Below are positions 2,196 through 17,820 of a stretch of DNA of 64,000 nucleotides, one piece after another (the stretch's first letter is position 1; every line of letters begins with the position of its first letter). The notes under the pieces are model-generated. The model worked only from the letters and a program-made list of their open reading frames with translations, made no database searches and had not been told where the DNA came from. Origin of the DNA: an uncultured Chloroflexia bacterium (GTDB lineage Bacteria > Chloroflexota > Anaerolineae > Anaerolineales > Villigracilaceae). The stretch is taken from the NCBI GenBank assembly GCA_963826215.1, contig CAWGWL010000037.1:27921-91920 (forward strand), given 5' to 3'. A program made the translations under genes and the position numbers.

Positions 2196-2304
2196 TAATC
2201 CCTAACAAGCAAAACCAAGTCAAGATAGCGATCAACCATACCATTTTAACTTGTTACATCCCAATTTCGACAGGGCGGCCGACAAACGATGGGACATTGG
2301 GATG

Positions 2305-2751: not shown

Positions 2752-2768
2752 ATTCTAATGAAGTCCAG

Positions 2769-3080
2769 TTATTGGATAGACTGAGAGCGTTTATGGATTT
2801 GATCTACTAAAATGCTGCGAACAAGATCACAGACAACAGCAATTTTATCATCCGTTATCTGGTAAACCCTTGTATTGCCTACCTTCCTCGAAGTTACAAC
2901 ACCCACGTTATGGAGGACAGATAACTGACGCGAAACAGACCCCTGCGGCAAGTTGATCTCCTGGCAGATTTCACTGACCGTAAGAGGATGTTCGCGCAGG
3001 ATGTGGAGCAATTGCAAGCGTACAGCGTTGCCCATCGCCTTGCAAAATTCCGCCTGAATTGCGAACATATACTGATTCAT
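2769..3080 (-). CDS. ArsR/SmtB family transcriptional regulator
   Basis: 103 aa, winged-HTH core AMGNAVRLQLLHIL...LTVSEICQEINLPQGSVSRQLSVL. Confidence 0.85.
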   Translation of the reverse strand: MNQYMFAIQAEFCKAMGNAVRLQLLHILREHPLTVSEICQEINLPQGSVSRQLSVLHNVGVVTSRKVGNTRVYQITDDKIAVVCDLVRSILVDQIHKRSQSIQ

Positions 3081-3102
3081 ATCAGGGGTTTCCTTCTGAT
3101 TT

Positions 3103-3495
3103 TCAGTGCAACCACTCGGGGTGGTCCTCCAGTTGACCGTTCAGGTAGGACTTTAGAGCATGATCAATTTCGAGAATATCCGTCAGGATGGGTTTAATCC
3201 CGGCTTGCACCAGGTTATTATAGGCACCCTGCCCCATTCCACGCGCCAGCAACACCTGGCAATCGCGAATGGGTGCGAGCATGCGTGCATGCAGACCTTC
3301 CTCAGCCGGGCCAAAACCATGGGCGAAACCTGGCTCTGTCTGATGTTGATGCCCAGGCTGATCATGTGCGGGTTTTGGGAGGGTCTCCTGCCCTGTGATC
3401 TTCCCATCAGAAATTGTGAAAACTTCGTAGAATACGGCACGCCCGAAATGGGCACTGATCGTTTTGTGGTCATCCGTTACAACAGCAATTTTCAT
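3103..3495 (-). CDS. NifB/NifX-family (dinitrogenase FeMo-cofactor-binding domain) protein
   Basis: MKIAVVTDD...ISAHFGRA...VLLARGMGQGAYNNLVQAGIKPI pattern typical of the family. GGGAG Shine-Dalgarno 7 nt upstream of ATG 3495, while the ORF-track start 3531 lacks one. Contains a His/Gln-rich insert. Confidence 0.6.
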   Translation of the reverse strand: MKIAVVTDDHKTISAHFGRAVFYEVFTISDGKITGQETLPKPAHDQPGHQHQTEPGFAHGFGPAEEGLHARMLAPIRDCQVLLARGMGQGAYNNLVQAGIKPILTDILEIDHALKSYLNGQLEDHPEWLH

Positions 3496-3625
3496 TTTGT
3501 TCTCCCTTAACCTAGCATTAGCAGGATACATTAAATATATTATCGTCCAAACGTTTTATACTTTCCATTCCCCTCTTCTGTCAAAAATAAAGGATGGTCT
3601 CAATTTTGAGAAGCAACTATATTGT

Positions 3626-4186
3626 CTAAATATGATGCCGATCCATCCAAACCAGTCCAAAAACAAAGAGCAACACGATCGACATCATAGCAACAACTAC
3701 CAAAAAAGATTGCCAAGAAAAAGATGAGCTGATTAGTTTGGTTGAAATATTGATATTTCCCGACATTGGCCCAGCATAGGTGTTGACAACTGGCAAGAGT
3801 GTAGGCGTTGCACAACTGCCAGGTGTGACACCCAATGTTGGGGCGAAAATGGATGCACGCCCAACATAGTCCAACGGGTGGCAGCTATGGCAGTCAGTGT
3901 AGATATCGTTCAGGGGGTTTGCTGTCAAGTCTTCGTGAGCCAAGTCTTTAACCATCGATGTACCGTTGCCGCCATGGCAATTGATGCAGATATCTTTGCT
4001 GGCATGAATTATATGCCATTCACCTTTCCCATTCACTGGATCTTCCTTTGTATGACAGGTAATGCAAGAGGAAGATTGTGGATCTCCGCAGGATGCCCGA
4101 ACGGGAATTATCATAAACCAAAGCATTATGGTGACACCCGCCAGCGAAGAGAAGAGGAACCAACGGAAAATCCGTCTCGTTACCAA
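3626..4186 (-). CDS. Membrane-anchored triheme c-type cytochrome
   Basis: N-terminal signal/anchor helix, three CXXCH motifs (CITCH, CINCH, CHSCH) and a C-terminal TM helix. Paralogue of 13283..14170. Confidence 0.75.
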   Translation of the reverse strand: MVTRRIFRWFLFSSLAGVTIMLWFMIIPVRASCGDPQSSSCITCHTKEDPVNGKGEWHIIHASKDICINCHGGNGTSMVKDLAHEDLTANPLNDIYTDCHSCHPLDYVGRASIFAPTLGVTPGSCATPTLLPVVNTYAGPMSGNINISTKLISSSFSWQSFLVVVAMMSIVLLFVFGLVWMDRHHI

Positions 4187-4214
4187 AATACACCTCCTTT
4201 AAGGTGCATTAACC

Positions 4215-4841
4215 CTATCGTGAGAAATGACGCTCTTTTGGACGGTCGCGATCGTCCAATGGACAGAGAAGAAGTAAATTACGGGAAGGGGTGGCACCCA
4301 TATTTTTCCACTGGTGAGGCAAATAAGCTTCAAAGAAGAGGCTGTCACCCGGATTGAGTACATAATTCTCGGTATCCACGCGATAAGTAATCTGCCCTTC
4401 CAGGCAGTAAACGAATTCGCGCCCAGTGTGGACAATGGGAGTTTTACCACTATCTGCATTTGGAGCAAGCGTGACGATGAACGGTTCCGCCCCAAAGCGC
4501 GGCATCCCCGCCCCCAGATCCTCGATCGAACCATGGATGAACGCGGCGCGCGGGCGATTTCCGACTTTCTGGTGTACAACAAGTTGGTCACCGTGATCAG
4601 TCTCGAAGAAGGCGGATATGGGTACCTGCAGAGTCTGCGCCAATTGCTGGAGTGTGCTCACACTCGGAGAAGTGCGCCGATTTTCAATCAGGCTTAACGT
4701 ATTTACGTTAAGACCACTTTGTTCAGCCAGAACACGAAGGGAAATGTCACGGGTAGCGCGGCAATTCGCGCAACCGCCGACCCACATCAATATCATCGAC
4801 GGGAGCATTCTCAACAGGCTGTTCTTTCGAAATTGGTGCAT
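4215..4841 (-). CDS. XRE-family HTH + cupin-domain transcriptional regulator
   Basis: HTH_3 segment ISLRVLAEQSGLNVNTLSLIENRRTSPSVSTLQQLAQTL followed by a cupin beta-barrel (HTGREFVYCLEG...PGDSLFFEAYLPHQW). The true start may be an internal Met (4787-4808). Confidence 0.8.
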   Translation of the reverse strand: MHQFRKNSLLRMLPSMILMWVGGCANCRATRDISLRVLAEQSGLNVNTLSLIENRRTSPSVSTLQQLAQTLQVPISAFFETDHGDQLVVHQKVGNRPRAAFIHGSIEDLGAGMPRFGAEPFIVTLAPNADSGKTPIVHTGREFVYCLEGQITYRVDTENYVLNPGDSLFFEAYLPHQWKNMGATPSRNLLLLCPLDDRDRPKERHFSR

Positions 4842-5040
4842 TTGTCATAATAATTTTCCTAAGTGTGTTTTATTACTATTATTATAGTACATTTATAGGG
4901 AAATTACAAATAATGTTACTATTATAATGGTTGTTAATATTATATCTTTAGGAAGGTATTCAAAGCTACATGCCAAGATTGTCCTCGAGTCAATAGTCTA
5001 CTCATTAGTTCAAACATATAAGTGAGACTTACCGGAAGTA

Positions 5041-5077
5041 ATAAAAAGAGCCCTTGAATATGATCAAGAGCTCTTGG
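5041..5077 (-). terminator. Intrinsic terminator of the respiratory operon
   Basis: On the minus strand, 26 nt after the Rieske stop: 12-bp stem (AAGAGCTCTTGA/TCAAGGGCTCTT, one mismatch), 6-nt loop, then TTTTTATT. Confidence 0.6.
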
Positions 5078-5102
5078 ATGGGAAGGCGAAGAAAAGATTC
5101 CG

Positions 5103-5519
5103 TTATCTAATGTACAAGTGTAAATTCCCATCGGAAGTAATCCCCGAGAGAAAGGAATTTAAAGGTTTAGCCGCCGGGCCACGGGTCACATTGCCTTGCA
5201 AGTCGAACCTGGAACCGTGACACGGGCAGGCAAACCCATCCGGCTTGCTTTCAACGGTGCAGCCCAGGTGGGTACAAAGCAGGCTGACGGCTTTGAATCC
5301 GGTTTGAGTGTGGAGGAGCAGCGCCGGGACTTCGAGTAGGACCGTGCGCGAATTGAGTGGATACTTGCCAGGAGAGCCGAGGTCAAAATCGGTTGGCGGG
5401 GAGGGTTCGGTGCGGGTATCCAGGAAACGGAACAGCCCACCCAGCCCGAGGAGACCACTGATCGATAAAACAGCAGCACTGGCAAGCTTTAGAAAATTCC
5501 GACGAGAAATATCTGCCAT
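5103..5519 (-). CDS. Rieske [2Fe-2S] protein with twin-arginine signal
   Basis: [17 protein letters not shown] (Tat motif). Cluster boxes CTHLGCTV and [14 protein letters not shown] 3 nt upstream of ATG 5519. Confidence 0.9.
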
Positions 5520-5524
5520 ATCCT

Positions 5525-6780
5525 TTACCGCTCCACTGCGTGGCAGGTGTGGCAATAGGCCGAGGACTGGTCAACTCCATTTTGGGTACAGGCGCTGCCC
5601 AGCACGGGTTTGAATGGGAAAACCTGGCTGGTGGCTTTTCCGACCAGTTGATAAGTCCCACCGGGCAGGACAAGCGTGTTCCAAAGCGGTTCATCTTTTT
5701 CAGTTACCAGGATGGTATCGCCCAACTTTAAATCCACCACCGGGTTGAGAAGCGAGAGGCGGAAGGCCAGGTCGTTGGGATCAGTCAGCGTACGAGTCTG
5801 CGGCAGGGCGGTGGGAGTGCCGTGACAAGTTTTACATTGAACATATTGAATATCCTTTTTGACGCTGTACAAGTTACCATCCCCCATAGCTTCGGACCGG
5901 GTATGACAATCAACGCAGTCGAGCTTCCACTCACATCTGGTGAACTGGGCAATGGGTTGATAGTAATCATGCAACCGGTCTGTGGGGAAATCCTGACGGG
6001 AGGTGAAGGTAATCGTGCGCAGATCGTAGTTGCCACGGTTATGGCAGGTATCGCATTGTGTGTAGGATATGGCGGTAGTGAGCTTATGAACCTGGTTCGA
6101 CTGAATATCCCGAGCGTTGGAACGGTCTGCGGATTGGGTGGGAGTATGACAGGCAGCACAACCGGTAAACCGGTAATAATCGCTTCCAGGCAATGGTTGG
6201 GCGGATAGGTGACAGGTCAGGCAATTTTGTCCGAAAGCCCTGACCGAAGGATTGGTTTCCCGGGTGGGATCAAACGCCTCCAAGGAGGTAATGCCACTGG
6301 TGCCCCTGGCACCTGGACGGCATATATTCCCAGCCGGGCTTTCAAATCCGGCTGGGCGCCAAATGTATATAGAATATTGGCGATGGCGCCTGCATAAGTT
6401 GCCTGGATGCTGGTGGTGGCACGCTGGATATGATCGCTGAAATTTCCGGGGGTGCCGTAGTGGCAATCAGCCCCACCACAGGAAGCCTGGACGACCGAGA
6501 AATCTGAAGGATTCTTCCCACCCCGCATAGTGCTGTGAGCCAGATCTGCATCCAGCGCCAGGGGCTCACCACCGTGACAGAGCACGCAGCCAAATGACTG
6601 AAGCGGATGTGCGTTGCTAATCTGTTCCAGGTCCGAGTGACAGGTGAGGCAGTACTCCACCTGACCGGTGATCGTGGGGGTAAGGGGAACAGGTGGCGGA
6701 CGACGACCTTCCTGCCAAGCGGCGACGAGTATGGCAAGTAATAAAGTGAATGAACCGGCGAGGTGAAAATAGCGGCGCAT
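5525..6780 (-). pseudogene. Multiheme c-type cytochrome (8 CXXCH + 1 CX4CH), frame broken once as assembled
   Basis: ORF 6217..6780 (signal anchor, CLTCH, CVLCH, CGGADCH) and ORF 5525..6466 (CLTCH, CAACH, CDTCH, CVDCH, CKTCH, CHTCH) overlap in different frames. Sense reads ...GIYAVQVPGA then shifts to TSGITSLEAFDP... at the CCCC run 6303-6306 (one base missing). Confidence 0.8.
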
Positions 6781-6789
6781 ATACTGGAT

Positions 6790-7823
6790 TCAGGAGGCGG
6801 GTACCAAAGCCAGAATGGTCAATACAAATACAGCCAAAAGGACGAAAACAGCCAACCCCTGTGCGAGGCGGCCTCTTTTGGGGAACCAGCGTCCCAATTC
6901 GGTCCTGACCGGTTTCGGGAAGATATAAGGGATGAGAGAAAGGAGCAGAAACACAGCCAGCGGGACGAACACCCCCCAGAAGAAGGGGCTGCCCAGCTTG
7001 AGCATCTGCTGTACCCAGAGGAAAAACCAGGGGCGCGGGCAGTCTCCACAATGGGGGAGGAGGCGGTGATCGAGGCGGCCAGTGGGGCGGGAGCGTAAGT
7101 AGCGAGCAGGAGCAACCCGGCGCCTGCCAGAAGCATGGCGAGAACTTCACGCCGGATCAGCTCAAAGCGGGAAATGCGAATTTGATCCTGGCGGAACGCG
7201 GGCGGGGGAACGGCGATACCGCCATCGCGGCGGACGCGAAAAATATGCCACACAACCAGGATCCCGGCGGCGAGGGTAAGGCCAAAAATATGCCAGGCAT
7301 AGAAACGAATCAGGGTAGCCGGGCCAGGCTGAGTGCCACCCACCAATATTGTATAAAATGCATTACCTACGAGGGGGATCGTTTTCACCAGGTTGGTGCC
7401 GGTGACCAGCGCCCAATGGATACCCTCATCCCAGCGCAGGACATAGCCGGTAAAATCCAGCAGGACTGCCAGCATAAGGAGTCCCATCCCCAGCAGATAG
7501 TTGAGGCGACGCGGAGGAGCATATGACCCGGTGAGAATCACCCGTAAAAGGTGTACGAGCGTGACAACGACCAGGAATTGCGCCGACCAATAGTGCAGGT
7601 TGCGGACCAGTCCACCGAATGGGACCAGGAATGTGAGAGTCTGGATCGAGAGCGCAGCCTGGTCGGGGGTGGGGATATAGTAAAACATCTCCAACAGGCC
7701 GGTGACCAGAAGAATGAGCGACAGGAAGACAGCCAAACCACCGGCGGCGAGAGTATAACGCAAACGCGCCTGGCGGGCAGGGATGGTTGGTGGATGGAGG
7801 TGATGGAAAAAATTCGGCCTCAT
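6790..7823 (-). pseudogene. Cytochrome b (b6 + subunit-IV-like fusion) of a Rieske/cyt b complex, frame broken once as assembled
   Basis: HLHPPTIP N-terminus and His-bearing helices (RNLHYWSAQF...VHLLR; YAWHIF...VWHIF). The 6819..7823 frame becomes nonsense after ...ETARAP. The adjacent frame continues WFFLWVQQMLKLGSPFFWGV... (ORF 6790..7005). The shift is at the GGGG run 7030-7033 (one base missing). Confidence 0.85.
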
Positions 7824-7880
7824 AATAAGATTATATCGTGTGATGAAAAACCGCCCCTCTTCCCGGAGCGGTTTTTTGAT

Positions 7881-9101
7881 TCAGGGGAAAGGGGGTCTCG
7901 GACTACCAAGAGGTTTACGAGACGATCCCCGGGGTCTCTTCTCCGGTGCCGGGTCGAAAACCGTAAGGTATTTCACTGCCAGGCCAAAGGCCAGGATTCC
8001 AGCTGAAAAGATGCCAATAGAAAGAGCCATCTCGGGAATGGACGGAAAATAAGTGACCTGGCTCATAAAAGTGGGCATATAAGTGACGGGGTCTGGATGA
8101 GTGACAGCGAACCAGCTCACATTGAATCGGTTCAAGATCATCCCAAGCAGCACCGCCAGGGCGCCAATCAATAATCCACGCGGACTCTGGCGGACCTTGC
8201 TGAATGAGAAAAGCAAAATGGGCAAAACTGCACCCAAAAGGATCTCTGCCCAAAAGAGGACGCTCATCAGGCCGCCGGTAAAGAGATATTGCAGATCACC
8301 GGCGTATGCGAGTTGACCAAATTTAACAACCAGGTAGAGCCCGAGAACAAATGGAATAAAGCAGGCCAGTTTCTCCAGCAAATGGATCTCAAGGCCACGG
8401 TTGAAGTAGCGCGAACTGAGAGAAGATTCAAAAAGGATCATGGCGAGACCGATCGCCAACGCAGAAATGAAGAACAGCACCGGCAAGATGGGCGTCCACC
8501 AGAGGGGGTAGAGCTTGGCAGGCTGGATGAGGAGAAGCGCACCCAGCGCTCCCTGATGGAGGGTGGAGATCACCGCCCCGAGGATAACGAGCGGCTTCAT
8601 GAAACGGCGAATGAAACCGGCAAGTTTATCCCATTTCAGGCGTTCGAAAATTGCCGGGGCAAATTCAACCGCCATGATGGCCGAATAAGCCATCACGTAG
8701 AGACCGATGACCAACAGGAAGGAGGTGAAATTCTGGTAGATGAAATAATGCCAGATGCGTTCCGGGTGACCCAGATCGACCAGGAGGGCGATAACCTCCA
8801 TGATGTAACCAAGCAAGCCGGTCAACAGGGTGGGGCGGACGAGGGGACGGAATTGCTCGAGCTCGAGGAGGTAAACGAGGGAGGTAATGATGAAGGCACC
8901 ACTACTGATAGCGATGCCAGTATACAAATCAAAGCTGACCCAAAATCCCCACGGGTAGGCATTGCTCAAGTTGCTGATAGCGCCAATCCCATTGGCATAA
9001 CGAAGCATGGCGACGATAAAGGCAATGCTCATCAGGGATAGGAGAACCACGACCAGCGGTTTCAGGCGGAAGCGAGGATGGATGGTAACTTTAAGATTCA
9101 T
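7881..9101 (-). CDS. NrfD/PsrC-family integral-membrane quinol-interacting subunit
   Basis: 406-aa polytopic membrane protein directly downstream of (4-nt overlap with) the Fe-S subunit gene. Size and hydrophobic pattern match polysulfide-reductase-type NrfD proteins. Confidence 0.75.
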   Translation of the reverse strand: MNLKVTIHPRFRLKPLVVVLLSLMSIAFIVAMLRYANGIGAISNLSNAYPWGFWVSFDLYTGIAISSGAFIITSLVYLLELEQFRPLVRPTLLTGLLGYIMEVIALLVDLGHPERIWHYFIYQNFTSFLLVIGLYVMAYSAIMAVEFAPAIFERLKWDKLAGFIRRFMKPLVILGAVISTLHQGALGALLLIQPAKLYPLWWTPILPVLFFISALAIGLAMILFESSLSSRYFNRGLEIHLLEKLACFIPFVLGLYLVVKFGQLAYAGDLQYLFTGGLMSVLFWAEILLGAVLPILLFSFSKVRQSPRGLLIGALAVLLGMILNRFNVSWFAVTHPDPVTYMPTFMSQVTYFPSIPEMALSIGIFSAGILAFGLAVKYLTVFDPAPEKRPRGSSRKPLGSPRPPFP

Positions 9102-9904
9102 TGTTCCTCCTCCGGCCGTGTTCCTGAGGTTTCAAGCTCCTGGGAATGCGCTTCTTTATTCTTTTTAACCACATGGACACCCACAGCGAGACCAGTTAAC
9201 GCGGCACCCAGCCCGAGTGCAGAAGGCAGGGTCAGTCTCATCACCGCTTCACTGACGTCCTTAACCGGGCTGGAGGGCAACTCCGGCAGGCCAAGCTCGT
9301 TAAACGGGACATGCGAAAGGATAAGGTAAGACGTGCCCCCGTTCTCTGACTCGCCATAGACATGGTTGAGGTAACGCGCCGGCTGAGCGGCGAGGCGGTC
9401 ATGGGCATATTTCAGGAGTTCGTCCCGTTCGCCGAACATCAGCGCACCGGTGGGGCAGGTGGCGACGCAAGCCGGTTCCAGGCCAACGTCGATGCGCTGG
9501 GTACACATGGAACATTTATCGATGAAGGCTCCGTCCACTAAACCCTTGTCATAGTCAAAGTGCGGCACGCCAAAGGGGCAGGCATTCATGCAATAACGGC
9601 AGCCGATGCACTTTTTCGGGTCGTATATTACCGGGCCGTCCGAACGCTTGCTGTATGCGCCCACCGGGCAGGCCGAAAGACAATCGGGTTCGTTGCAATG
9701 CATACAATGATAGACCATGGAGGCGCGCACCGGATTGGGATATTCCCCCTTCAGACCGACACCTGCAACCCAAATGCGGGTCTTATTCATGGGGATCTTA
9801 TTTTCAACACTGCAGGCGACCATACAGGCGCGGCAATCGATACAGCGGGTGGAGTCGAACAGGAAAGATTTATGTTGAATGTCTGGCATGGAATCGGCTC
9901 CCAT
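9098..9904 (-). CDS. 4Fe-4S ferredoxin-type electron-transfer subunit (PsrB/DmsB/HybA-like) with C-terminal membrane anchor
   Basis: Four Cys clusters (CIDCRACMVAC, CMHCNEPDCLSACP, CIGCRYCMNACP, CSMC...CVATCP) and a terminal hydrophobic helix LGLGAALTGLAVGVHVV. The start may be Met6 (9889), which has a GGGAG upstream. Confidence 0.85.
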   Translation of the reverse strand: MGADSMPDIQHKSFLFDSTRCIDCRACMVACSVENKIPMNKTRIWVAGVGLKGEYPNPVRASMVYHCMHCNEPDCLSACPVGAYSKRSDGPVIYDPKKCIGCRYCMNACPFGVPHFDYDKGLVDGAFIDKCSMCTQRIDVGLEPACVATCPTGALMFGERDELLKYAHDRLAAQPARYLNHVYGESENGGTSYLILSHVPFNELGLPELPSSPVKDVSEAVMRLTLPSALGLGAALTGLAVGVHVVKKNKEAHSQELETSGTRPEEEQ

Positions 9905-12079
9905 CTATAACTTCGATACCGTTACAAAAGTCTGGCTGAGGGCCTGACCACCGCTGATGGGGTCAGTGTAAGTTAAGTGTAAATCAGAGTCGCTGGCGCC
10001 AATACCATAGGCAACCGTAAGACCCCGGGATAGATGCCCGTAACCAGGAGTGAGATAAACACAATCCGGCCGGATGGCCTGAGTAACTTCCAGCTTTGTG
10101 TGGATCTTTCCGGCAGCGCTGGCGACTTCCACCAAGTCGTTATCTTTCAAACCCAAACCATGTGCAGTAGCCGTGTTCATCCACAGGCGCGGCTCATCCG
10201 AATACTTATGGAGGAGCTGGTTGTTCTGTGACCCAAACTGAGTGGACTGAGCCACTTTGCCGGTCAATAAATAGAATTGATTCGGACCAGGAGCGGGAGG
10301 TTCCTCCCACTGCGGCACTGCAGAAAAACCACCCTTGTCCAACGTGGAGGAGAAAAGTTCGATCTTCGTGCTGGGGGTATTCCAGGCCGGCTCGGAAAAA
10401 TCGGGCCCCTCGCCGGGCATATCCACGTAACCCATCTGACGGACCTGGTCGAGGGAGACACCCAGGGGAGCCAACTGCTGTTTGAGGTAATCCTCTTCAT
10501 CAGAGTACTGAAAGAAGTCGCCCAGCCCCAGACGGGTGCCGAGTTCCTTGTAGATCCAAAGGGCGGATTTCGCCTGTCCCTGGGGTTCGATGACCGGTTG
10601 GCGAAGGAAAGCTTTATCCCCCACGATGTTGAGGGGGTCGTAGCGCTCCAAGTAAGAGGCCTCGGGAAGGACAACGTCCGAAAACCAGGAGGTGTCGTTC
10701 ATAATAATGTCGACGGTGACGATGAAGTCCATCCTGCCGAAAGCTTCCAAAGTCCGGCCGCGGTCGGGCAGGGACATGGCAGGGTTTTGGCGGGAGATGA
10801 ACCAGCCGTGAGCCTGATAGGGGGTTCCACTCAGGGCGGCTTCGCGTAATTCCTGGAAGACACCAATCTTGAGGGGAACGAATGGGTATTTCCAGGGCAC
10901 TCCATCCAACCGCTGGGCGGAGACACGCGGGTATGGCGGCTGCGGAGGAGCACCCAGCACGCCACTCTCCTCCCCGGAGGCCGGGAACATTGCCACACCC
11001 CAGTTGCCCGCCAATGCATTCAGAATGGCGATGGCACGCTCGGTTTGGAATGAGTTGATGAAATTGGAAGTCCGCCAACCGTTGTGCGCCAAGGCATGAG
11101 GGGCAGAAGCGGCGAATTCACGTGCAACCGCCTGGATGGTTTCAGCGGGGATGCCAGTAATGGCTGCCGCCCAATCGGGGGTATATGACAGCACCGCATC
11201 CGCCAACTTATCGAAACCGGAGGTCAGGTTGGTCACCGTATAGCGGTTGTACAACTCTTCTTTAATGATGACGTTGATCAGTGCCAAGTGGAATGCCAGG
11301 TCGGTGCCCGGTCGAATTGGCAGCCACAGTGTGGATTTCGCAGCCGTCTTGGTGAAGCGCGGATCCAGTGTGACCACCTTTGCACCCCGGTCAATGGCCT
11401 GACTCAGGGCGGAAGTCTCGGAAGTGGAGATGGCTTCCATCAGGTTACGCCCGGTTAAAATGATGTATTTAAGGTCGTCGTATTTTCGGGCGGGTTCTTC
11501 CATGCCGTAGGTGGTGAGGTTGGCCACAATCATGGCGTTGAAACACAAACTGCGCTGTGTACCGTAATTAGGTGACCCGTATGCATTGAGAAGGTTTTCG
11601 AACTGGACCTGACTAAGATTGTGGGTGGAGGAAAAGATCATCGCCTCCGGGCCGTATTTTTGCCTGATGTCAAGCATATTTTTAGCAACCAGGTCGAGGG
11701 CCTCCTCCCAGGAAGCCTTGCGGAACAGCCCTTCGCCGCGCTTCCCGACCCGGATAAGGGGGGTCAGGACCCGGTCAGGGTCGTATGTGTTCATCAGACC
11801 GGACTGGCCGCGCGGACACAATTTACCATTGGAATGCGGGTGATCGGGATTGCCTTCCAGCTTGACCACGCGCCCGGCTTCGACCTTTGCCAGCAGGCCG
11901 CAGCGCCAAACGCACATTTCGCACATGCTGGGAATAACCCCGCTGTCCGAGGCATCCAGCAGACCGCCCGAGCGGGCTGCCTGGGCCACCCAGGGAGATA
12001 AATACTCCCCCAGGGCCAAGGCACCAACGGCTGCGCCGCTAACCTTCAGAAAATCGCGGCGGGAAAGTGTATACGGCAT
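9905..12079 (-). CDS. Molybdopterin (bis-MGD) oxidoreductase catalytic subunit, PsrA/PhsA-like, Tat-exported
   Basis: MPYTLSRRDFLKVSGAAVGALALG Tat signal. N-terminal FS0 cluster motif CEMCVWRCGL...CPRGQSG. ~725 aa. GGAGAAGG precedes ATG 12079, whereas the ORF-track TTG start is at 12091. Confidence 0.85.
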   Translation of the reverse strand: MPYTLSRRDFLKVSGAAVGALALGEYLSPWVAQAARSGGLLDASDSGVIPSMCEMCVWRCGLLAKVEAGRVVKLEGNPDHPHSNGKLCPRGQSGLMNTYDPDRVLTPLIRVGKRGEGLFRKASWEEALDLVAKNMLDIRQKYGPEAMIFSSTHNLSQVQFENLLNAYGSPNYGTQRSLCFNAMIVANLTTYGMEEPARKYDDLKYIILTGRNLMEAISTSETSALSQAIDRGAKVVTLDPRFTKTAAKSTLWLPIRPGTDLAFHLALINVIIKEELYNRYTVTNLTSGFDKLADAVLSYTPDWAAAITGIPAETIQAVAREFAASAPHALAHNGWRTSNFINSFQTERAIAILNALAGNWGVAMFPASGEESGVLGAPPQPPYPRVSAQRLDGVPWKYPFVPLKIGVFQELREAALSGTPYQAHGWFISRQNPAMSLPDRGRTLEAFGRMDFIVTVDIIMNDTSWFSDVVLPEASYLERYDPLNIVGDKAFLRQPVIEPQGQAKSALWIYKELGTRLGLGDFFQYSDEEDYLKQQLAPLGVSLDQVRQMGYVDMPGEGPDFSEPAWNTPSTKIELFSSTLDKGGFSAVPQWEEPPAPGPNQFYLLTGKVAQSTQFGSQNNQLLHKYSDEPRLWMNTATAHGLGLKDNDLVEVASAAGKIHTKLEVTQAIRPDCVYLTPGYGHLSRGLTVAYGIGASDSDLHLTYTDPISGGQALSQTFVTVSKL

Positions 12080-12143
12080 AACCTTCTCCAATCAATAGCC
12101 GGGCCTGCGAACCAGACGCCCGCAGACCCGGCCGGGGGGATAA

Positions 12144-12695
12144 TTAACCTTTCTTTTCCTTGCGGTGCAACCCCATACGATCGATCAGGTAGAAGAGCAC
12201 CAACGCCATCAGTGCGAAGACAAAAATGGCGAGGTATGGGCTGATATGCCACAGGTCGGGGATAACCACGCTGCCAAAATTGCCAATTGCCTTGATCTGG
12301 GGCATGAAACTTTGATAAGTCAGACCAAAAATGACTCCGCCCGTCAGGAAGCCGAGCAGGCCGGGGACGATATAGTCCAGCTTGCCTTCGCCAGCGCCAG
12401 CAGCAGCCGTACCCGGACAGAAACCAGCCCCAGCCATGCCAACCCCAAAGACCAGGCCGCCAATCAGATTCCCAACAACATATGTTTCGGGAATGGCCGG
12501 AAAGGTGATAATGCCGAGGGCGCGCAAAGGATAGACACCGAGCATGGTGACAACGAGGGCGGTCATCATGAACTTCAGCACGGTAAAGTCGGTGAGACGG
12601 AACTGGTTAACAATTTTATGGTACTTGGTAAGACCAGCTTTATTGAGGGCAAAGCCGAACAACACGCCGAGAACCAGAGCATAAACGTAAGTCAT
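12144..12695 (-). CDS. YeeE/YedE family sulfur(selenium)-compound transport protein, half-size
   Basis: 183-aa polytopic membrane protein with a Gly-rich helix ...GMAGAGFCPGTAAAGAG... typical of the YeeE/YedE (PF04143) fold. Paired with 12708..13232. Confidence 0.7.
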   Translation of the reverse strand: MTYVYALVLGVLFGFALNKAGLTKYHKIVNQFRLTDFTVLKFMMTALVVTMLGVYPLRALGIITFPAIPETYVVGNLIGGLVFGVGMAGAGFCPGTAAAGAGEGKLDYIVPGLLGFLTGGVIFGLTYQSFMPQIKAIGNFGSVVIPDLWHISPYLAIFVFALMALVLFYLIDRMGLHRKEKKG

Positions 12696-12707
12696 GGCAT
12701 CCTCCTT

Positions 12708-13232
12708 TTAGTATTTCTTTCCGTAGACGAGCAGAGCTGTGCCAATCCCGGAGGCGAACATCCCTCCGATGAACAGGAAAGCCGCCGGAGCGAGCAGCAT
12801 ACCGCCCGAAATGGCCAGTCCGCTGGTGCAGCCGCCTGCGATCCCAGCCGCAAATTCAACGACTATTCCGCCAACGAAGAGCAGGAGCCAGCGCTTCCAG
12901 GTCTGCTTGCCGTAAGCCGTTTTCCATTGTTCGCTATCCATTTTACGGAATTTGAAGGTGCCGCTGGATAAGGCTCCCAGCATCCCGCCAAAGAAAATAC
13001 CGACCAGCAGGATGACGGGATAGGTGATCTCCGGTTTCATCATGTAGCTGAAGTACACATTGCCGGGGTTTATTGCCTTACCGATATAGGCAGCCAGGTT
13101 CTCAAAGCCTCCCGAGGCTCCCAATAGTTGGTGAGCGAGCACCACGGTGAGGATGCCGACGACGCCAAGCAAAGCGCCAGCAACGTAGGGTGACCATTCT
13201 TCCTTGCGAAATTGTTTTACGAGCGAGTTCAT
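12708..13232 (-). CDS. YeeE/YedE family sulfur(selenium)-compound transport protein, half-size
   Basis: ~174 aa with ...EFAAGIAGGCTSGLAISGG... conserved-Cys helix. AAAGGAG precedes ATG 13232. Confidence 0.7.
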   Translation of the reverse strand: MNSLVKQFRKEEWSPYVAGALLGVVGILTVVLAHQLLGASGGFENLAAYIGKAINPGNVYFSYMMKPEITYPVILLVGIFFGGMLGALSSGTFKFRKMDSEQWKTAYGKQTWKRWLLLFVGGIVVEFAAGIAGGCTSGLAISGGMLLAPAAFLFIGGMFASGIGTALLVYGKKY

Positions 13233-13282
13233 TTGATCTCCTTTCAAAATTTATTGATTAGATATGTACGAGGACGGATAAA

Positions 13283-14170
13283 TTATTCTTCCCGATCTTC
13301 AGAGGCTTGATCCTCAGCGGAGTCTTCATCTGCCAGAGGATTGTCCGCCGGCAGGGACTCAACGGGTTCAACCTGGATCAAATTGTTTATGGAAGCCAGC
13401 AGGTCACCAGCAGCCTGAGGCTTTGCGAGGATGGTTGATAAAATTTGCCGGGAGGCAGGTTTTAATTTTGACAAGGCAGGCAGCAGCCCAACCACGTCAG
13501 CGGGATACTTTTCCTGAACAGGGAGGCGCCTGGGATCCTCAAAGGAAATGTTGATCAATCCCTCCCGCTTGAGAACAAAGAAGCCACCACCAAGGATGAG
13601 GACTGCCAGGATGGCGATCAGAATGATGTTCCCCACATTGGCAGGTGTTTTCCCCAAGGCGACGGCATCATAGCGCTGCGTGTAATCCACCATGTCGGCC
13701 GCGGGTACCACCACCGCGGGCGCAGAAGTTGGAGCAACCCCATTCGTCCCAGGAACTGCGGAAGCAACGGGCAGGCTGGTTCCGCTCCCGCCCGTGCCAA
13801 CCTGCTGACCGAGGGTGGTTGCATAGGTCTGAGCCAAGGCCAGGGTGTCGTCAGGATGACAGCTTTTACAGCTAGCGTCGATGTCCGCCAGGGGAGCCAC
13901 CATGCCGGTGTGAGAAACCACCTTGTCGGTGGCTTGATTATTGCCTGCGTGACACAGATAGCAAAAATCACCAAAGGCGTGCTGGGTATGCCAGGTGGTA
14001 CCGTCATTGTTAACCGGATCCTGCGCCTGCGTTTCGTGGCAGTTTTTACAGGAAGATGCCTGTGAACCGCATTGCGCTTTTACCGGGGTAGCCGTCATTA
14101 AGAACACGCTGCCTGTGACCAGCAAAACGCCCAACACCACGAATAAAATCGTAAACCTTTTTTGATTCAT
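13283..14170 (-). CDS. Triheme c-type cytochrome with N-terminal anchor, second TM helix and acidic cytoplasmic tail
   Basis: CKNCH, CYLCH, CKSCH. The heme domain aligns by eye with 3626..4186. It continues into an Ala/Pro-rich linker, TM helix NIILIAILAVLILGGGFFVL and a ~100-aa tail ending ...DEDSAEDQASEDREE. Confidence 0.75.
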   Translation of the reverse strand: MNQKRFTILFVVLGVLLVTGSVFLMTATPVKAQCGSQASSCKNCHETQAQDPVNNDGTTWHTQHAFGDFCYLCHAGNNQATDKVVSHTGMVAPLADIDASCKSCHPDDTLALAQTYATTLGQQVGTGGSGTSLPVASAVPGTNGVAPTSAPAVVVPAADMVDYTQRYDAVALGKTPANVGNIILIAILAVLILGGGFFVLKREGLINISFEDPRRLPVQEKYPADVVGLLPALSKLKPASRQILSTILAKPQAAGDLLASINNLIQVEPVESLPADNPLADEDSAEDQASEDREE

Positions 14171-14219
14171 ATCGTCCTCATTGAAACAAATGGATTATGA
14201 ATATTTTAATTTAGGGGGG

Positions 14220-14561
14220 TTATGCCGGAATAAATTCATCCATGAGATCAGCGTGATGCTGGATGCGTTCGCGCAAAACACTTCGCAATATGTCGAGTGC
14301 TTCGATGACGCGGTGATCGGTCAACTCATACTGGACGGAGGAACCCTGGCGGGTGGCCTTTACCAAGCCGCCTTCCCGCAATACCTTCAGATGGCGCGAT
14401 ACGGTGGGTTGGGGAACTTCCAATTCCTGAGTCAACTCTGTGACGTTGCGAGGCTGGTCCGAGAGGGCATACAGGAGAAGGAGACGGGTGGGATCTGCCA
14501 GTGCGGAGCACAGGTCGGCGTGGAGGTGGGTAATTTCCTGGGTGAGGGTTGAAGTTATCAT
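14220..14561 (-). CDS. ArsR/SmtB family transcriptional regulator
   Basis: 113 aa. ALADPTRLLLLYAL...NVTELTQELEVPQPTVSRHLKVLREGGLV. Confidence 0.85.
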   Translation of the reverse strand: MITSTLTQEITHLHADLCSALADPTRLLLLYALSDQPRNVTELTQELEVPQPTVSRHLKVLREGGLVKATRQGSSVQYELTDHRVIEALDILRSVLRERIQHHADLMDEFIPA

Positions 14562-14831
14562 ATGACCTTATTCGTATAAACGCATATTGAATAATGAGTA
14601 TAATACTCTTGTGAAGAATTGCACATGTAGTGTCCAATGTCACTTTGAGTTGGACATAATGTCACATATGATGTGATTATTTTAAATTGGACCAGGGTGA
14701 ATTCAACTCCCCCACCCACCTGTTAATGAAGCACCCCCTGGTGAAAAGTCATATAACAAACGCTTGCAGCATTGGCCGTCCCAAATACCCCATGGAGTGT
14801 CACGCCCTGCCAAGCAATCTCAACCTATTAA

Positions 14832-15971
14832 TTACCTTGCAACCTTGAGTGTAAAATTTAATGTGCTGCCCTGGGCGTCCCCGCTGCTCTCGGCCCAAAT
14901 ACTGCCGCCATGGGCTTCGACGAGGAGGCGGGCTATCGTCAGCCCAATGCCTGAACCCCCGCCAGCCTGACGTGATCGGGACTTGTCGACACGGTAGAAG
15001 CGCGTGAAAAGATGCGGTAAGTGCTCAGCTGGAATACCTATCCCAGTATCCACCACGGAAACCTGGACTTCATCCTGGCGCGACCGGGCGAGGATGGATA
15101 TTTTTCCACCGGCGGGTGTATATTGCACAGCATTACCGACCAGGTTGGTAAGTACCTGGGTGATGCGATCCTGGTCCGCTAGCACGGGGGGAAGATCAGC
15201 CGGCAGGTCCGAACGGAGTTCGATCTGTTTTGCCTGGGCTTGCGACTCAAACCGTTTGAGGGTGGTTTTCACAAGGGTTGATATTTCCACTGGGTGGATA
15301 TCCAGGGGGTAAGCCCCTGCTTCCACCCGGCTCAATTCCTGGAGATCATCCACCAGGCGCGCCAGGCGGCCGGCCTCCTGATGAATTTGCTGAAAGGTAT
15401 CGACCGTGGCAGGCAGGACGCTGTCCATCAAGCCTTCCATGGAACCCTTGATAGCGGTAAGCGGGGTGCGGAGTTCGTGACTTACATCCCCGATCAACTG
15501 CCGGCGCATGGATTCCACCTGTTCGAGTTTTTCCGCCATTTGATTAAAGGAATGAGCCAACTGACCAAGCTCATCGGAACCGGCACCCTGAACCCGCTCC
15601 CCGTAATGACCAGCCGCGATTCGCCGGCTGGCGGTCGTTAGGATACGCAGCGGAGCTACAATGCTGCGGCTTAGAAAAAGACTGACAATGATCGCGATCA
15701 CCCCAGCAGTGAGGAGGGCCAGGATGAGTGCCTGATTGAAGGTGGCCTGGAAACTCGTGAACAGGTCAGACAACATCCCGGCACCAGGACCATTTCCATT
15801 CCCCCCCATCATTCCCTGACCAGCCCTGAGCGCCAAGCCCATATGGCTGTTGAAGGCCTCGGGGACTGTAAAGCGGGTGGCCAAGCCAAGGACAATAGCT
15901 CCAACCAGGATCACTGCAATGTAGGAAAGGAAAAGTTTCACTCCAAGGTAACGACGAAAGAATGCAATCAT
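14832..15971 (-). CDS. HAMP-domain sensor histidine kinase
   Basis: Two TM helices flank a ~45-aa loop. H-box VSHELRTPLTAI, N-box LTNLVGNAVQYT, G-boxes DTGIGI and GGSGIGLTIA. 4-nt overlap with the response-regulator gene. Confidence 0.9.
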   Translation of the reverse strand: MIAFFRRYLGVKLFLSYIAVILVGAIVLGLATRFTVPEAFNSHMGLALRAGQGMMGGNGNGPGAGMLSDLFTSFQATFNQALILALLTAGVIAIIVSLFLSRSIVAPLRILTTASRRIAAGHYGERVQGAGSDELGQLAHSFNQMAEKLEQVESMRRQLIGDVSHELRTPLTAIKGSMEGLMDSVLPATVDTFQQIHQEAGRLARLVDDLQELSRVEAGAYPLDIHPVEISTLVKTTLKRFESQAQAKQIELRSDLPADLPPVLADQDRITQVLTNLVGNAVQYTPAGGKISILARSRQDEVQVSVVDTGIGIPAEHLPHLFTRFYRVDKSRSRQAGGGSGIGLTIARLLVEAHGGSIWAESSGDAQGSTLNFTLKVAR

Positions 15972-16651
15972 AAGGTTTCATCCTCAAAGCGATAGCCCAC
16001 CCCCCGGACGGTGGCAACGAAACTTTCAGAGCCAAGTTTTCTGCGAATATGGCCGAGGTGGACGTCCACGACGCGCAGCTCACCGAAATAAGCACCGCCC
16101 CAAACGGTCTCGAGCAACTGTTCGCGGGTCAAAACCCGCCCACGATTTTCAGCAAGGGCTTTCAACAAGTCGAATTCCGCGGCGGTCAGATCGACAGGTT
16201 GATCATCAACAAGGACCTGGCGCGCGGCAAGGTCGATGCGAACGTGGCGAAAGGCGAGAATCCGATTTTCCGGGCCGGTTCCCGACCCAGGCTGCAGCCG
16301 GCGGAGGGCGGCCTTTATGCGCGCCACCAGCTCGCGCGGACTGAACGGCTTGGTAACGTAGTCATCCGCCCCCACTGAAAGTCCGACGATCCTGTCGGTC
16401 TCCTCAGACTTAGCTGTCAGGAGAATGACATATACATTTGATTCGCGGCGCAATTGGGATAGAACCTCGAAGCCATCCTTCCCGGGCAGCATCAGATCGA
16501 GGACGATAACATCCGGTTGGAATGCACGGGCAGCCTTAAGCCCCGCAATCCCATCCGCAGCGGTGTAAACCTCATACCCTTCGGGCTTGAGGTAGGCCGT
16601 GACCAGGTTAACGATGGAAGGTTCGTCATCGATTACAAGGATCTTTGCCAT
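15968..16651 (-). CDS. OmpR/PhoB-family response regulator
   Basis: MAKILVIDDE receiver start (ATG 16651), DLMLPGKDG phospho-acceptor region, and a winged-helix C-terminus ...VRGVGYRFE. Confidence 0.9.
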   Translation of the reverse strand: MAKILVIDDEPSIVNLVTAYLKPEGYEVYTAADGIAGLKAARAFQPDVIVLDLMLPGKDGFEVLSQLRRESNVYVILLTAKSEETDRIVGLSVGADDYVTKPFSPRELVARIKAALRRLQPGSGTGPENRILAFRHVRIDLAARQVLVDDQPVDLTAAEFDLLKALAENRGRVLTREQLLETVWGGAYFGELRVVDVHLGHIRRKLGSESFVATVRGVGYRFEDETL

Positions 16652-16712
16652 GGGAGTATTGTAACGTAAAAAAAAGGACGGGATTGCACCCGTCCATGGG
16701 AGTGCAGGAAAA

Positions 16713-17657
16713 TTAGTAGTCCTGAGTTGAGATGAAGGTACCATGCCAGGTGTGGAGGAAAACCTGGCTACTGTTGCCGTTGACGCTCAACATGCCAACG
16801 ATCTTTCCAGCGCGCAGGATGTCGATGGTGAAATAACCATAAAAGGGATCAGCGTCAGATGCCGCTTGTGTACCAGGCAGTGCTGTGTTCAGGTAGGTCT
16901 GGGCAGCTTGTAACGCTTGGGCCGCGGTTACCGGCATTTCTGCGGAGACAGCCGGCGGGGTTGTGCTCAAAGATGGTTGACCTGTTGTCCCATTTCCACC
17001 ACCCATCATTCCATTCCCACGACCCATCATCCCATTCCCACCACCGCCCATCATATATTGATGGTTCAAAGCAGAATACTTCAGGTTCCACATCATGTTT
17101 GGACCGGGTTCTGGCGTTACCGCCAATGTGGCCGGATCCACGAGCAATTCAAAGGCTCCAACGCCGGTGCTTTGCTCGATGACACGTACATAAGCGTTAT
17201 TGTCGAAGACCATCACTTCAGCAACCTTGAGGTCGGGAATATTCAGCGCGGCGAGGTACGTTCCAGCGGCCTGATATGCCTGATCCAGCGTGATTTGAAC
17301 ACTTGAGGTGTTCAGGTAGCCATTGCCGCCCACACCCGCACATGTACCGGATTGCAGTGCAGGGGCAAGTGTCATACCGGTACCAGAACCGCGCACGCCA
17401 CCCATCATTCCGTTGCCAGAACGGCGCAAGTTCCCGAGATTCATCATGCCACCGCCGACCCTGGTGCTCCCGTTCATCATGCCGAAGCCATTTCCAGAGA
17501 ATGCGCGGTCATCGTACCCCATAATGGGGTAGGCAGGCTGAGCCCAGCCCAAACCAAAGGCCGTGCGGTGTCCAATCCAGGTGCCTGCAATAACCAAGCC
17601 GCCTGCAATTGCAAGGATCCCGATAACCATAAAAGTAATCCGAAGTGCTTTATTCAT
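16713..17657 (-). CDS. Membrane-anchored double PepSY-like domain protein with Gly/Met-rich linkers
   Basis: N-terminal TM helix and two PepSY-like modules (ITLDQAYQAAGTYL..., VTAAQALQAAQTYL...). Each module is preceded by a GNGMMGG-type low-complexity stretch. Confidence 0.65.
   Translation of the reverse strand: MNKALRITFMVIGILAIAGGLVIAGTWIGHRTAFGLGWAQPAYPIMGYDDRAFSGNGFGMMNGSTRVGGGMMNLGNLRRSGNGMMGGVRGSGTGMTLAPALQSGTCAGVGGNGYLNTSSVQITLDQAYQAAGTYLAALNIPDLKVAEVMVFDNNAYVRVIEQSTGVGAFELLVDPATLAVTPEPGPNMMWNLKYSALNHQYMMGGGGNGMMGRGNGMMGGGNGTTGQPSLSTTPPAVSAEMPVTAAQALQAAQTYLNTALPGTQAASDADPFYGYFTIDILRAGKIVGMLSVNGNSSQVFLHTWHGTFISTQDY
16986..17063 (-). repeat. In-frame tandem codon repeat encoding MMGGGGNGMMGRGNGMMGGGNG
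   Basis: Plus strand shows near-identical 19-mers cccatcattccattcccac (17001-17019) and cccatcatcccattcccac (17023-17041), plus partial copies on each side. Confidence 0.7.
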
Positions 17658-17780
17658 TAAACATTTCTCCTATTTTTCAATCCTCAAATACTTTTTTTCT
17701 GTGATGGAAGTATAGGGTTGGAAGTTAAATGGAGAGTGAAGCATCTATGAAGATTGTGTAAAGATTTGGAAGCATAGATC

Positions 17781-17820
17781 TTTAAAACAACGCGCCCATT
17801 TCCTCCACGGAAATGAGCGC
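17781..17820 (-). terminator. Intrinsic terminator after the DUF2892 gene
   Basis: Minus strand: GCGCTCATTTCC-GTGGA-GGAAATGGGCGC (12-bp stem, one mismatch) followed by GTTGTTTTAAAG. Confidence 0.55.

Follow-up and report, generated by a model that had tools for sequence, protein, structure and literature searches.

Iron-sulfur (FeS)/NrfD modules of the HmcBC, Qrc and alternative complex III types partner multihaem cytochromes, and a study of Wolinella succinogenes is said to have found that N2O respiration needs the NosGH module together with a Rieske/cytochrome bc complex. In Campylobacter jejuni, Nap and Tor, both of them periplasmic reductases, obtain their electrons by way of Qcr, and the reduction is thereby electrogenic (PMC6195509). 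Among the products of the extHIJKLMNOPQS genes of Geobacter sulfurreducens are multihaem cytochromes as well as ExtO (Rieske protein), ExtP (cytochrome b) and ExtQ (membrane protein); this module, for which a role in electron transport has been proposed, is uncharacterised (PMC5877670). Here we describe a ten-gene locus in a 64-kb stretch of DNA from an uncultured Chloroflexia bacterium (this whole stretch is the window below), all of whose genes lie on the minus strand, from 14561 to 5103. As judged from its sequence, the locus encodes an extracytoplasmic, cofactor-competent molybdenum (Mo) enzyme of the Psr family on an FeS/NrfD anchor, together with a complete Rieske/cytochrome b quinol oxidase that has a nonahaem cytochrome c as acceptor.

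The ten co-oriented genes are tightly packed, with intergenic gaps of 0 to ~57 nt, and run in the order ArsR, trihaem cytochrome c, YeeE half, YeeE half, Mo subunit, FeS subunit, NrfD subunit, cytochrome b, nonahaem cytochrome c and Rieske protein, as established from the list of open reading frames (ORFs), Pfam, NCBIfam and direct inspection (Table 1). A first-pass annotation of this DNA had described ten minus-strand genes in this order, with short gaps and a closing terminator, and every part of that description was found again, the terminator as the hairpin at 5046-5075. The cytochrome b and "8-9-heme" genes that it listed are also present, but each is split by a 1-nt frameshift as sequenced, and the haem count is nine. 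The genes from ArsR to NrfD are referred to below as unit 1, and those from cytochrome b to the Rieske protein as unit 2.

Table 1. Features of the locus and of its surroundings, in window coordinates (TM, transmembrane; Tat, twin-arginine translocation; PGD, pyranopterin guanine dinucleotide).
Feature	Position	Strand	Evidence or remark
ArsR/SmtB-family regulator, 113 aa, first gene of unit 1	14220-14561	-	PF01022 E 6e-19; NCBIfam HTH_metalloreg 86 bits vs cutoff 55
Membrane-anchored trihaem cytochrome c, 295 aa	13283-14170	-	3 CxxCH, 2 TM helices
YeeE/YedE half, C-terminal half of full-length TsuA/YeeE	12708-13247, probable ATG 13232	-	PF04143 E 8e-17, profile 167-307 of 310
YeeE/YedE half, N-terminal half	12144-12695	-	PF04143 E 3e-18, profile 11-150 of 310
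Tat-exported Mo/W-bisPGD catalytic subunit, PsrA/PhsA/SrrA family	9905-12091, probable ATG 12079	-	orthologues 724 aa
Four-[4Fe-4S] subunit, C-terminal membrane helix, HmcB/HybA/FdnH-like	9098-9904	-	
NrfD-family 10-TM membrane subunit, HybB/HmcC-like	7881-9101; real stop probably 7915	-	PF03916 E 2e-30
Terminator-like hairpin in the NrfD/cytochrome b gap	7846-7876	-	-18.3 kcal/mol, z = -3.78
TATAAT box, candidate leaderless promoter	7830-7835	-	exactly 6 nt before cytochrome b ATG (7823)
Cytochrome b6-like + subunit-IV-like fusion, 344 aa after 1-nt repair	6790-7823	-	PF00033 E 1e-31
N-terminally anchored nonahaem cytochrome c, ExtM-like, 418 aa after 1-nt repair	5525-6780	-	8 CxxCH + 1 CxxxxCH
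Tat-signal membrane-anchored Rieske [2Fe-2S] protein	5103-5555, probable ATG 5519, 138 aa	-	CTHLGC, CPCHGS, RRNFLK
Intrinsic-terminator-like hairpin closing unit 2	5046-5075	-	12-bp stem + T-run; -19.1 kcal/mol, z = -4.33
XRE-cupin regulator	4215-4841	-	accessory block 2305-4841
Trihaem cytochrome paralogue without cytoplasmic tail	3626-4186	-	accessory block
NifX/Nitro_FeMo-Co-like protein	3103-3531	-	accessory block
Second ArsR	2769-3080	-	accessory block
TrmO-like protein	2305-2751	-	accessory block
Split or truncated unrelated genes	46333-47743; 52021-53382; 22248-23015; 29522-31358; 804-2195		

Protein modules of the locus and their closest relatives

The catalytic subunit carries a Tat motif (RRDFLK) at residue 11, the FS0 cysteines C57, C60, C64 and C92, and matches to PF04879, PF00384 and PF01568, with both PGD-binding domains represented. 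It aligns end to end with PsrA of T. thermophilus (2VPW, E 4.5e-130); the Mo ligand and the active-site histidine of PsrA (Cys173 and His145) are conserved as Cys183 and His157, and the equivalent of Arg332 lies in a gapped stretch of the alignment and is uncertain. In NCBIfam, the subunit scores 560 bits with PhsA, under the cutoff of 694, and no higher than 261 bits with any other Mo family. The PsrA alignment, together with the PhsA score as compared with those of all other Mo families, places the predicted enzyme in the PsrA/PhsA/SrrA lineage. Exact-protein look-ups of the Mo and NrfD products of the window returned no match.

The FeS subunit has four cysteine groups, at 21, 67, 99 and 131, and a TM helix at 228-246; it scores 226 bits with HmcB and 199 bits with HybA, and its best matches in the PDB are FdnH (1KQF_B) and then PsrB. 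The NrfD subunit has 10 predicted TM helices and scores 280 bits with HybB, 266 with HmcC, 32 with NrfD and 22 with TtrC; phmmer gave no PDB match for it, including to PsrC at E <= 1e-3. "PsrABC-like", as the cluster had first been called, is therefore apt for the Mo subunit but not, in detail, for its partners, which resemble HmcBC/HybAB rather than PsrB and PsrC: instead of a soluble PsrB and an 8-helix PsrC we found an FeS subunit with a C-terminal TM helix and a 10-helix anchor. With PsrABC, PhsABC and SrrABC the locus has in common a Tat-exported, Cys-ligated Mo-bisPGD subunit, a four-cluster FeS subunit, an NrfD anchor without haem motifs and nearby rhodanese genes. Besides the membrane module and the PhsA score, the difference is that none of these systems has a linked Rieske/cytochrome b pair, multihaem cytochromes or a YeeE pair.

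An HmcB/HmcC-like FeS/NrfD pair with membrane-anchored multihaem cytochromes is also the common ground with Hmc, Qrc and alternative complex III, and the QrcB, QrcC and QrcD models match here. In contrast to ActB and QrcB, the MopB subunit of the locus keeps the Tat signal, FS0, the Mo-ligand cysteine and both PGD domains, and since these cofactor features are intact it should be catalytic. No homologues of ActA/D/E/F or HmcA/D/E/F were found here, and the locus does not qualify as an alternative complex III.

Of the other products of unit 1, ArsR has weaker NCBIfam matches to CmtR, TsoR and BigR, all under cutoff. The trihaem cytochrome has CxxCH motifs at 41, 70 and 101, an N-terminal TM helix or signal at 6-24, a second TM helix at 182-200 and a cytoplasmic tail of ~95 aa, and its Pfam cytochrome matches are weak only. 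This tail (window 13283-13570) has no family match and is conserved in the relative L002; the paralogue encoded downstream of the locus has the same three haems and a TM helix. The two YeeE/YedE genes share PF04143 with the thiosulfate importer YeeE/TsuA and with the selenium-associated YedE, and jointly span both halves of a full-length transporter. YeeE/TsuA is a single protein of ~330-350 aa, whereas here there are two half-size genes with the C-half-like one first; they score 25-31 bits, far under the TsuA and YedE cutoffs (350-645), which leaves Pfam family membership only.

Once corrected for the frameshifts discussed below, the cytochrome b of unit 2 matches ExtP over residues 4-203 and ExtQ over residues 227-341. 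Its haem ligands, H77/H91 (H-x13-H) and H178/H193 (H-x14-H), have b6-type spacing, seven TM helices are predicted, the C-terminal domain is subunit-IV-like, and in the Qo motif a variant, APWF, stands in place of PEWY. The haem-ci cysteine of b6f and Firmicute complexes is absent, the position aligned to b6 Cys35 being occupied by Ala. The Rieske protein has its cluster and disulfide cysteines in CTHLGC (residue 82) and CPCHGS (residue 98), as well as a Tat signal/anchor, and matches the b6f PetC and bc1 Rieske models with E 1e-14 to 1e-17, under their cutoffs. The nonahaem cytochrome aligns with ExtM over profile positions 17-391 of 599 (two-thirds), and its nine haem motifs are invariant in 41 orthologues. 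Orthologues of it are annotated as "hypothetical protein" or "multiheme c-type cytochrome". A phmmer search of this protein against the PDB gave nothing meaningful, and an AlphaFold2 model built with 35 orthologues (mean predicted local distance difference test, pLDDT, 46.5) was too poor for a fold search.

ExtP, ExtQ and ExtM of Geobacter are the best-scoring NCBIfam models for unit 2, and because all three scores lie under the equivalog cutoffs (209 vs 290, 46 vs 150 and 138 vs 800 bits) the resemblance is one of homology, not membership. The ExtMNOPQS genes (GSU2930-2935), part of the extHIJKLMNOPQS "selenite/tellurite reduction" cluster, share with the present locus a large multihaem cytochrome c, a subunit-IV-like membrane protein, a cytochrome b of the b6 type and a Rieske protein, which here resembles ExtO, and a rhodanese accompanies both (ExtH there, a membrane-anchored rhodanese in nine related loci here). 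The two differ in that ExtP and ExtQ are separate there and fused here, that there are 12 haems there and 9 here, that ExtN, ExtS, ExtKL and the porin ExtI have no counterpart here, and that a Mo enzyme is linked here and not there. Neither the window nor the 52 related loci described below contain porin-like or ExtKL-like genes, and no matching outer-membrane conduit genes were found at the locus.

Across the 41 orthologues of the nonahaem protein, the only invariant distal ligands on hand for the nine haems are H58, H82, H232, H411 and M299 (corrected numbering), with H117 present in 88%, and the extra cysteines C283 and C398 as well as K382 are invariant or nearly so. Some of the haems may have five-fold coordination or ligands of the His/Cys or His/Lys kind, a hint that the protein is catalytic and not just wiring; in a speculative reading, it would be an enzyme in its own right whose haems have His/Cys ligands like those of TsdA, SoxA and DsrJ.

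As sequenced, the cytochrome b ORF (6819-7823) runs out of frame at ~7032, after "...ETARAP", and the conserved continuation "PWFFLWVQQ..." is found in ORF 6790-7005, which holds the true C-terminus; the multihaem gene is in two pieces (6217-6780 and 5525-6466). When compared to L001, the closest long relative (89% DNA identity), the window is one base short in a C-run at 7034 and one base short at 6310, and 1 nt is probably missing from the NrfD tail at ~7942, where the alternative frame ends in ...ETPGIVS followed by a stop, as in L001. At each of the two confirmed shifts a base is missing from a short C-run (~7031-7034 and ~6303-6310), and one base restored per site yields full-length products whose orthologues are intact at 343-344 aa (cytochrome b) and 410-425 aa (nonahaem cytochrome).

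With 1-nt frameshifts in two, and probably three, adjacent genes, the locus could be thought to decay, the cytochrome b, multihaem and NrfD genes being true pseudogenes; we hold this to be very improbable. A short-read contig from run X6 that matches the window over 212 nt with a single mismatch has the extra base at 6305, and short-read contigs of close relatives have one at 6303 and at 7032 (runs X2 and X4 for 7032). At least five unrelated genes of the window are split likewise: 6-phosphogluconate dehydrogenase is divided between two consecutive ORFs (profile positions 1-142 and 149-290), a GlcF-like Fe-S/CCG protein is spread over three, and the genes for PHO4, an ABC permease and a P-type ATPase are broken up or cut short as well. 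Furthermore, L001 has a frameshift of its own in a different gene of the cluster, the trihaem cytochrome. From the extra bases, the other split genes and the separate shift of L001, we infer that assembly errors have put the cytochrome b, multihaem and NrfD genes out of frame and that none of them is a pseudogene. The split genes across the window indicate a generally indel-prone (long-read) assembly, and the relatives of the locus are long-read metagenome-assembled genomes (MAGs) from soil and sediment. The practical lesson is that long-read MAG sequence of this kind has frequent 1-nt indels that look like pseudogenes.

Conservation in Anaerolineales and the NrfD/cytochrome b junction

In order to follow the locus across species, one genome per species was scanned with a cytochrome b alignment as query and the best 80 of 468 relatives, all Anaerolineae, were examined; the locus counts given here (L-numbers) refer to window proteins mapped onto the loci among those best 80. 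Cytochrome b is followed by the nonahaem gene in 60 loci from distinct species genomes. The Mo, FeS and NrfD genes lie directly upstream in 49 of them, and the contig is too short to judge in eight. The remaining three are L005, with the same genes upstream and a 2.8-kb insertion between, L039, with Mo and FeS and an undetected NrfD, and L068, with cytochrome b and the nonahaem gene and no Mo cluster. Mo-FeS-(NrfD) therefore stands upstream of cytochrome b-multihaem-Rieske in 51 of 52 judgeable loci, with variable flanks. The pairing that had been singled out in the first-pass annotation, in which an NrfD-anchored Psr-like enzyme goes together with two YeeE genes and a module of Rieske protein, cytochrome b and multihaem cytochrome, does exist and is not random. 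Of the 49 full loci, 41 have ArsR and 44 the trihaem gene, and both YeeE halves and the Rieske gene each occur in 41-44. The core genes are found in 41-53 loci as compared to 21 for the commonest flanking family, so the block has been kept together while its surroundings were reshuffled. Identity to the window co-varies between the modules across loci (Mo vs cytochrome b, rho 0.67). Close homologues of the Mo subunit are 74-95% identical, and where they are named, the Mo and cytochrome b homologues all come from Anaerolineales/Chloroflexota MAGs.

Several loci depart from this layout in details. The insertion of L005 (7200-10000) includes a gene whose product starts like DsrE-family proteins, as judged by eye; L020 has transposase-like ORFs, also by eye, at 4334-5327 in place of ArsR...YeeE, none of which was found there; and L045 and L082 are without the YeeE pair. 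In 13 relatives (L014, L015, L018, L020, L026, L041, L042, L046, L054, L056, L059, L060 and L079) the Mo subunit is 69-89% identical to that of the window, with ~53% identity for FeS and ~38% for NrfD, vs ~75% and ~65% elsewhere. The L014 versions of FeS and NrfD are still HmcB/HybA- and HybB/HmcC-like, and it looks as if the membrane module had been replaced by a divergent paralogue in such loci. An apparently divergent Mo subunit in L021 (53% identity) was discarded as the product of a frameshift-ridden assembly.

A second class of 16 further loci (L043, L047-L049, L053, L057, L061, L063-L065, L069, L070, L072-L074 and L080) encodes a 567-584-aa fusion of a monohaem cytochrome c with cytochrome b, 61-66% identical, with the Rieske gene directly after it; Mo genes are absent from the vicinity, and the complex is of the ordinary bc type. 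At L049, a dihaem cytochrome c also follows the Rieske gene. Both classes are present in two genomes, MFD03899.bin.2.128 (L044 and L063) and C1.bin.8.strict (L029 and L064). The first-pass annotation had allowed that the Rieske/cytochrome b genes of the locus might be the only bc complex of the organism and neighbours of the Mo genes by chance, which does not fit these two cluster-bearing relatives with their separate bc complex. Since the same genomes have a second, ordinary cytochrome b and Rieske complex, the copy at the locus is a dedicated paralogue.

The same annotation had taken all ten genes to be one co-transcribed operon, and here the data point elsewhere. Aligning the orthologous NrfD-cytochrome b gaps revealed an element in the 57-nt gap that consists of an A-tract, CCGCTCC, a variable 7-nt loop, GGGGCGG, TTTTT, ten bases, TATAAT, six bases and the ATG at 7823. 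A terminator-like hairpin with a T-run occurs within 110 nt before cytochrome b in 32 of 59 loci, and in 1 of 48 at the control junction before the Mo gene; because the stems are unrelated between lineages, it is the structure and not the sequence that is conserved. A generic promoter/terminator scan gave counts no higher than in shuffled sequence and missed the internal hairpin, probably through A/T tracts that extend the stem. Of the 59 loci, 31 have TA[TAG]AAT ahead of cytochrome b, nearly all of them at a distance of 6 nt to the ATG, and only two of the 67 window ORFs show the pattern TA[TAG]AAT-N6-ATG. A Shine-Dalgarno-like motif is absent at the cytochrome b start in 53 of 56 loci, and present for NrfD (37/38), YeeE (22/23) and the trihaem gene (9/9). 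The L005 insertion, the only large one in any locus, falls exactly at this junction.

The characteristic sign of a leaderless mRNA is a -10 hexamer six bases ahead of a start codon that lacks a ribosome-binding site. This suggests that cytochrome b has its own internal, leaderless-type promoter after an internal terminator. With the hairpin, TATAAT-N6-ATG and the lack of a Shine-Dalgarno motif at one junction, the locus is best read as two putative transcription units rather than one operon, ArsR...NrfD (14561 to ~7846) and cytochrome b-multihaem-Rieske (7823-5046), or at the least as an operon with a predicted internal terminator or attenuator and an internal promoter of its own. The other window ORF with the pattern is the TrmO-like gene (TAGAAT-GTGATC-ATG, 2745-2760), a possible second leaderless start. 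The nonahaem gene starts 9 nt past the cytochrome b stop (6780-6790) and is without a Shine-Dalgarno motif in 31 of 32 loci, which suggests that, behind a leaderless first gene, its translation is coupled or is initiated in some other unusual way.

This conserved terminator and promoter raise the possibility of two independent systems, in which the Psr-like enzyme operates by itself on its NrfD anchor and Rieske/cytochrome b/nonahaem form a separate module for electron export, for instance for the reduction of metals, humic substances or Se/Te that has been suggested for Geobacter Ext; adjacency would then reflect shared regulation or inherited synteny. L068, with unit 2 alone, the place of the L005 insertion and the restriction of all loci to one order are in line with it, and the Geobacter Ext module has no linked Mo enzyme (PMC5877670). 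We nevertheless regard independence as somewhat unlikely, as the adjacency is kept in 51 of 52 loci while the rest is reshuffled, and the trihaem cytochrome of unit 1 would be left without an obvious role if the Psr enzyme acted alone.

Proposed function

The interpretation that we favour, if tentatively, is that both units serve the anaerobic respiration of a sulfur or selenium compound, with Rieske/cytochrome b as a proton-motive second electron route. Such a compound is proposed because of the YeeE genes, the rhodanese of nine loci and the TusA of L002; Psr, Srr and Ext have accompanying rhodaneses as well (Sud, SrrE/F and ExtH, respectively). The substrate, which may be selenite, tetrathionate, polysulfide or thiosulfate, would be reduced outside the membrane at the Mo site, and the split YeeE/YedE would be the transporter for a sulfur or selenium compound. 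Menaquinol could be oxidised in two ways: directly at NrfD, which would not be energy-conserving, or via the Q-cycle of the Rieske/cytochrome b complex, unit 2 acting as a dedicated menaquinol:cytochrome c oxidoreductase. On the second route, electrons would pass over the 9 + 3 haems and reach either the Mo site by way of the FeS subunit or a second acceptor outside the cell, and the reduction would thereby be proton-motive.

The arrangement has physiological parallels in C. jejuni (Nap and Tor) and W. succinogenes (NosZ), where a Rieske/cytochrome bc complex feeds a periplasmic reductase and where, in Wolinella, an NrfD/NrfC-type module and the bc complex serve one and the same reductase. There, however, the bc complex is a single housekeeping one encoded elsewhere, whereas here a dedicated paralogue stands beside the enzyme together with a nonahaem cytochrome. 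As a housekeeping complex could re-oxidise quinol, a dedicated paralogue fits delivery to a specific reductase better. On thermodynamic grounds, the Rieske route needs an acceptor well above menaquinone, so that selenite or tetrathionate would be favoured over polysulfide or thiosulfate.

Several points weigh against this interpretation. The Rieske route fits only fairly high-potential acceptors and not polysulfide or thiosulfate, the substrates of most similar enzymes, and the NrfD/FeS module alone is enough for quinol coupling. That the cytochromes make contact with the FeS subunit is a hypothesis, and in L068 unit 2 occurs with no Mo cluster at all. Owing to the predicted internal terminator and promoter, each unit can be expressed independently of the other, and with all loci from one order the synteny may be partly inherited rather than selected. 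Finally, the polysulfide, thiosulfate, selenite and sulfur reductases PsrA, PhsA, SrrA and aSreA are phylogenetically intermixed (PMC10100899), so the substrate of the Mo enzyme is not readable from its sequence.

The resemblance of the membrane module to Hyb and Hmc partners also brings in the oxidative direction. HybAB and HmcBC modules feed periplasmic electrons into the quinone pool, and it is with HybA/HybB and HmcB/HmcC that the FeS and NrfD subunits have their highest scores. The Mo enzyme would then oxidise sulfide, polysulfide, thiosulfate or arsenite outside the membrane and reduce menaquinone via the NrfD module, and Rieske/cytochrome b would re-oxidise menaquinol and pass the electrons to the multihaem cytochromes and on to an oxidase or external acceptor, in a complete donor-to-cytochrome chain. 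Arx-type arsenite oxidases, in a neighbouring Mo clade, have the same architecture (PMC10100899), and the "reverse flow" that had initially been considered for this DNA is compatible with such a chain. This direction is unlikely in our view: the housekeeping bc complex of the relatives could re-oxidise the quinol, which makes a dedicated copy unnecessary; the ArxA/ArrA and SoeA models score far under PhsA; and there is no linked gene for a terminal oxidase or a cytochrome c oxidase.

Reductive respiration of sulfur or selenium with two quinol routes thus remains our preferred interpretation. Its strongest form would be a physical supercomplex, in which a private Rieske/cytochrome b6 Q-cycle is wired via twelve c-haems into the FeS chain, giving proton-motive S/Se respiration in a monoderm or a quinol-based bifurcation that pushes electrons onto a low-potential substrate; we consider this speculative and rather improbable.

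Flanking genes and significance

Downstream of the locus lies an accessory block (Table 1), and at L002 its XRE-cupin, cytochrome paralogue, NifX-like and second ArsR genes are found directly upstream of the cluster, along with a rhodanese. These accessory genes recur in 7-17 of the 52 loci. The recurring neighbours include an FmdE-like zinc-finger protein (21 loci), XRE-cupin (17), a MobA-like guanylyltransferase (13) and NifX-like proteins (9); the MobA-like and FmdE-like genes point to an active Mo cofactor in the predicted enzyme. The rhodanese of nine loci has an N-terminal membrane anchor and a domain predicted to face outward. TusA occurs with a rhodanese at L002, and no adjacent TusA or YeeD was found in the window. 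An Rfam scan of positions 1-20000 returned no riboswitch or known RNA and no molybdenum cofactor (Moco) motif, a chance microRNA match being the only hit.

Upstream of ArsR, on the minus strand, the inverted repeats TCACAT-cat-ATGTGA (14676-14662) and GTCCAA-N12-TTGGAC (14655-14632) sit between a promoter-like site (14706-14679) and the ArsR start, along with a repeated GTGACAT, and are candidate operators. A shared ArsR operator at both promoters was considered and dropped, as the similarity is not conserved beyond close relatives. Further upstream, beside a HisKA/response-regulator pair (14832-16744), a gene at 16713-17657 on the minus strand encodes a 314-aa membrane-anchored protein with Gly-Met repeats (MMGGGGNGMMGRGNGMMGGGNG) and no family match. 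Its motif resembles Met-rich metal-binding proteins, and the L001 orthologue has 242 aa owing to a 1-nt difference at 16891.

We found no description of such a combination in the literature searched. The closest mention concerns the Chloroflexi genome RBG-9, described in 2013 with "two PetAB complexes" and with octahaem cytochromes in operons with DMSO-reductase-family subunits (PMC3971608). Each module of the present locus is of a known kind; what is undescribed is the combination of a catalytic Psr-family enzyme on an Hmc/Hyb-type anchor with a split YeeE, a trihaem cytochrome and a dedicated ExtMOPQ-like complex. As such, the locus is a second, independent context for the uncharacterised ExtMOPQ module of Geobacter. 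If the two units exchange electrons, they would represent a genetically hard-wired bc-type complex dedicated to a periplasmic-type Mo reductase, a principle of bc-to-reductase transfer that has so far been only physiological, in Campylobacter and Wolinella. Anaerolineales are abundant and mostly uncultured bacteria of soils, sediments and sludge that are usually described as fermenters. The locus, retained by over 50 species of the order, would equip it with an anaerobic respiration that has gone unrecognised, in which a chalcogen-type molybdoenzyme is paired with a Q-cycle complex of its own and twelve c-haems.

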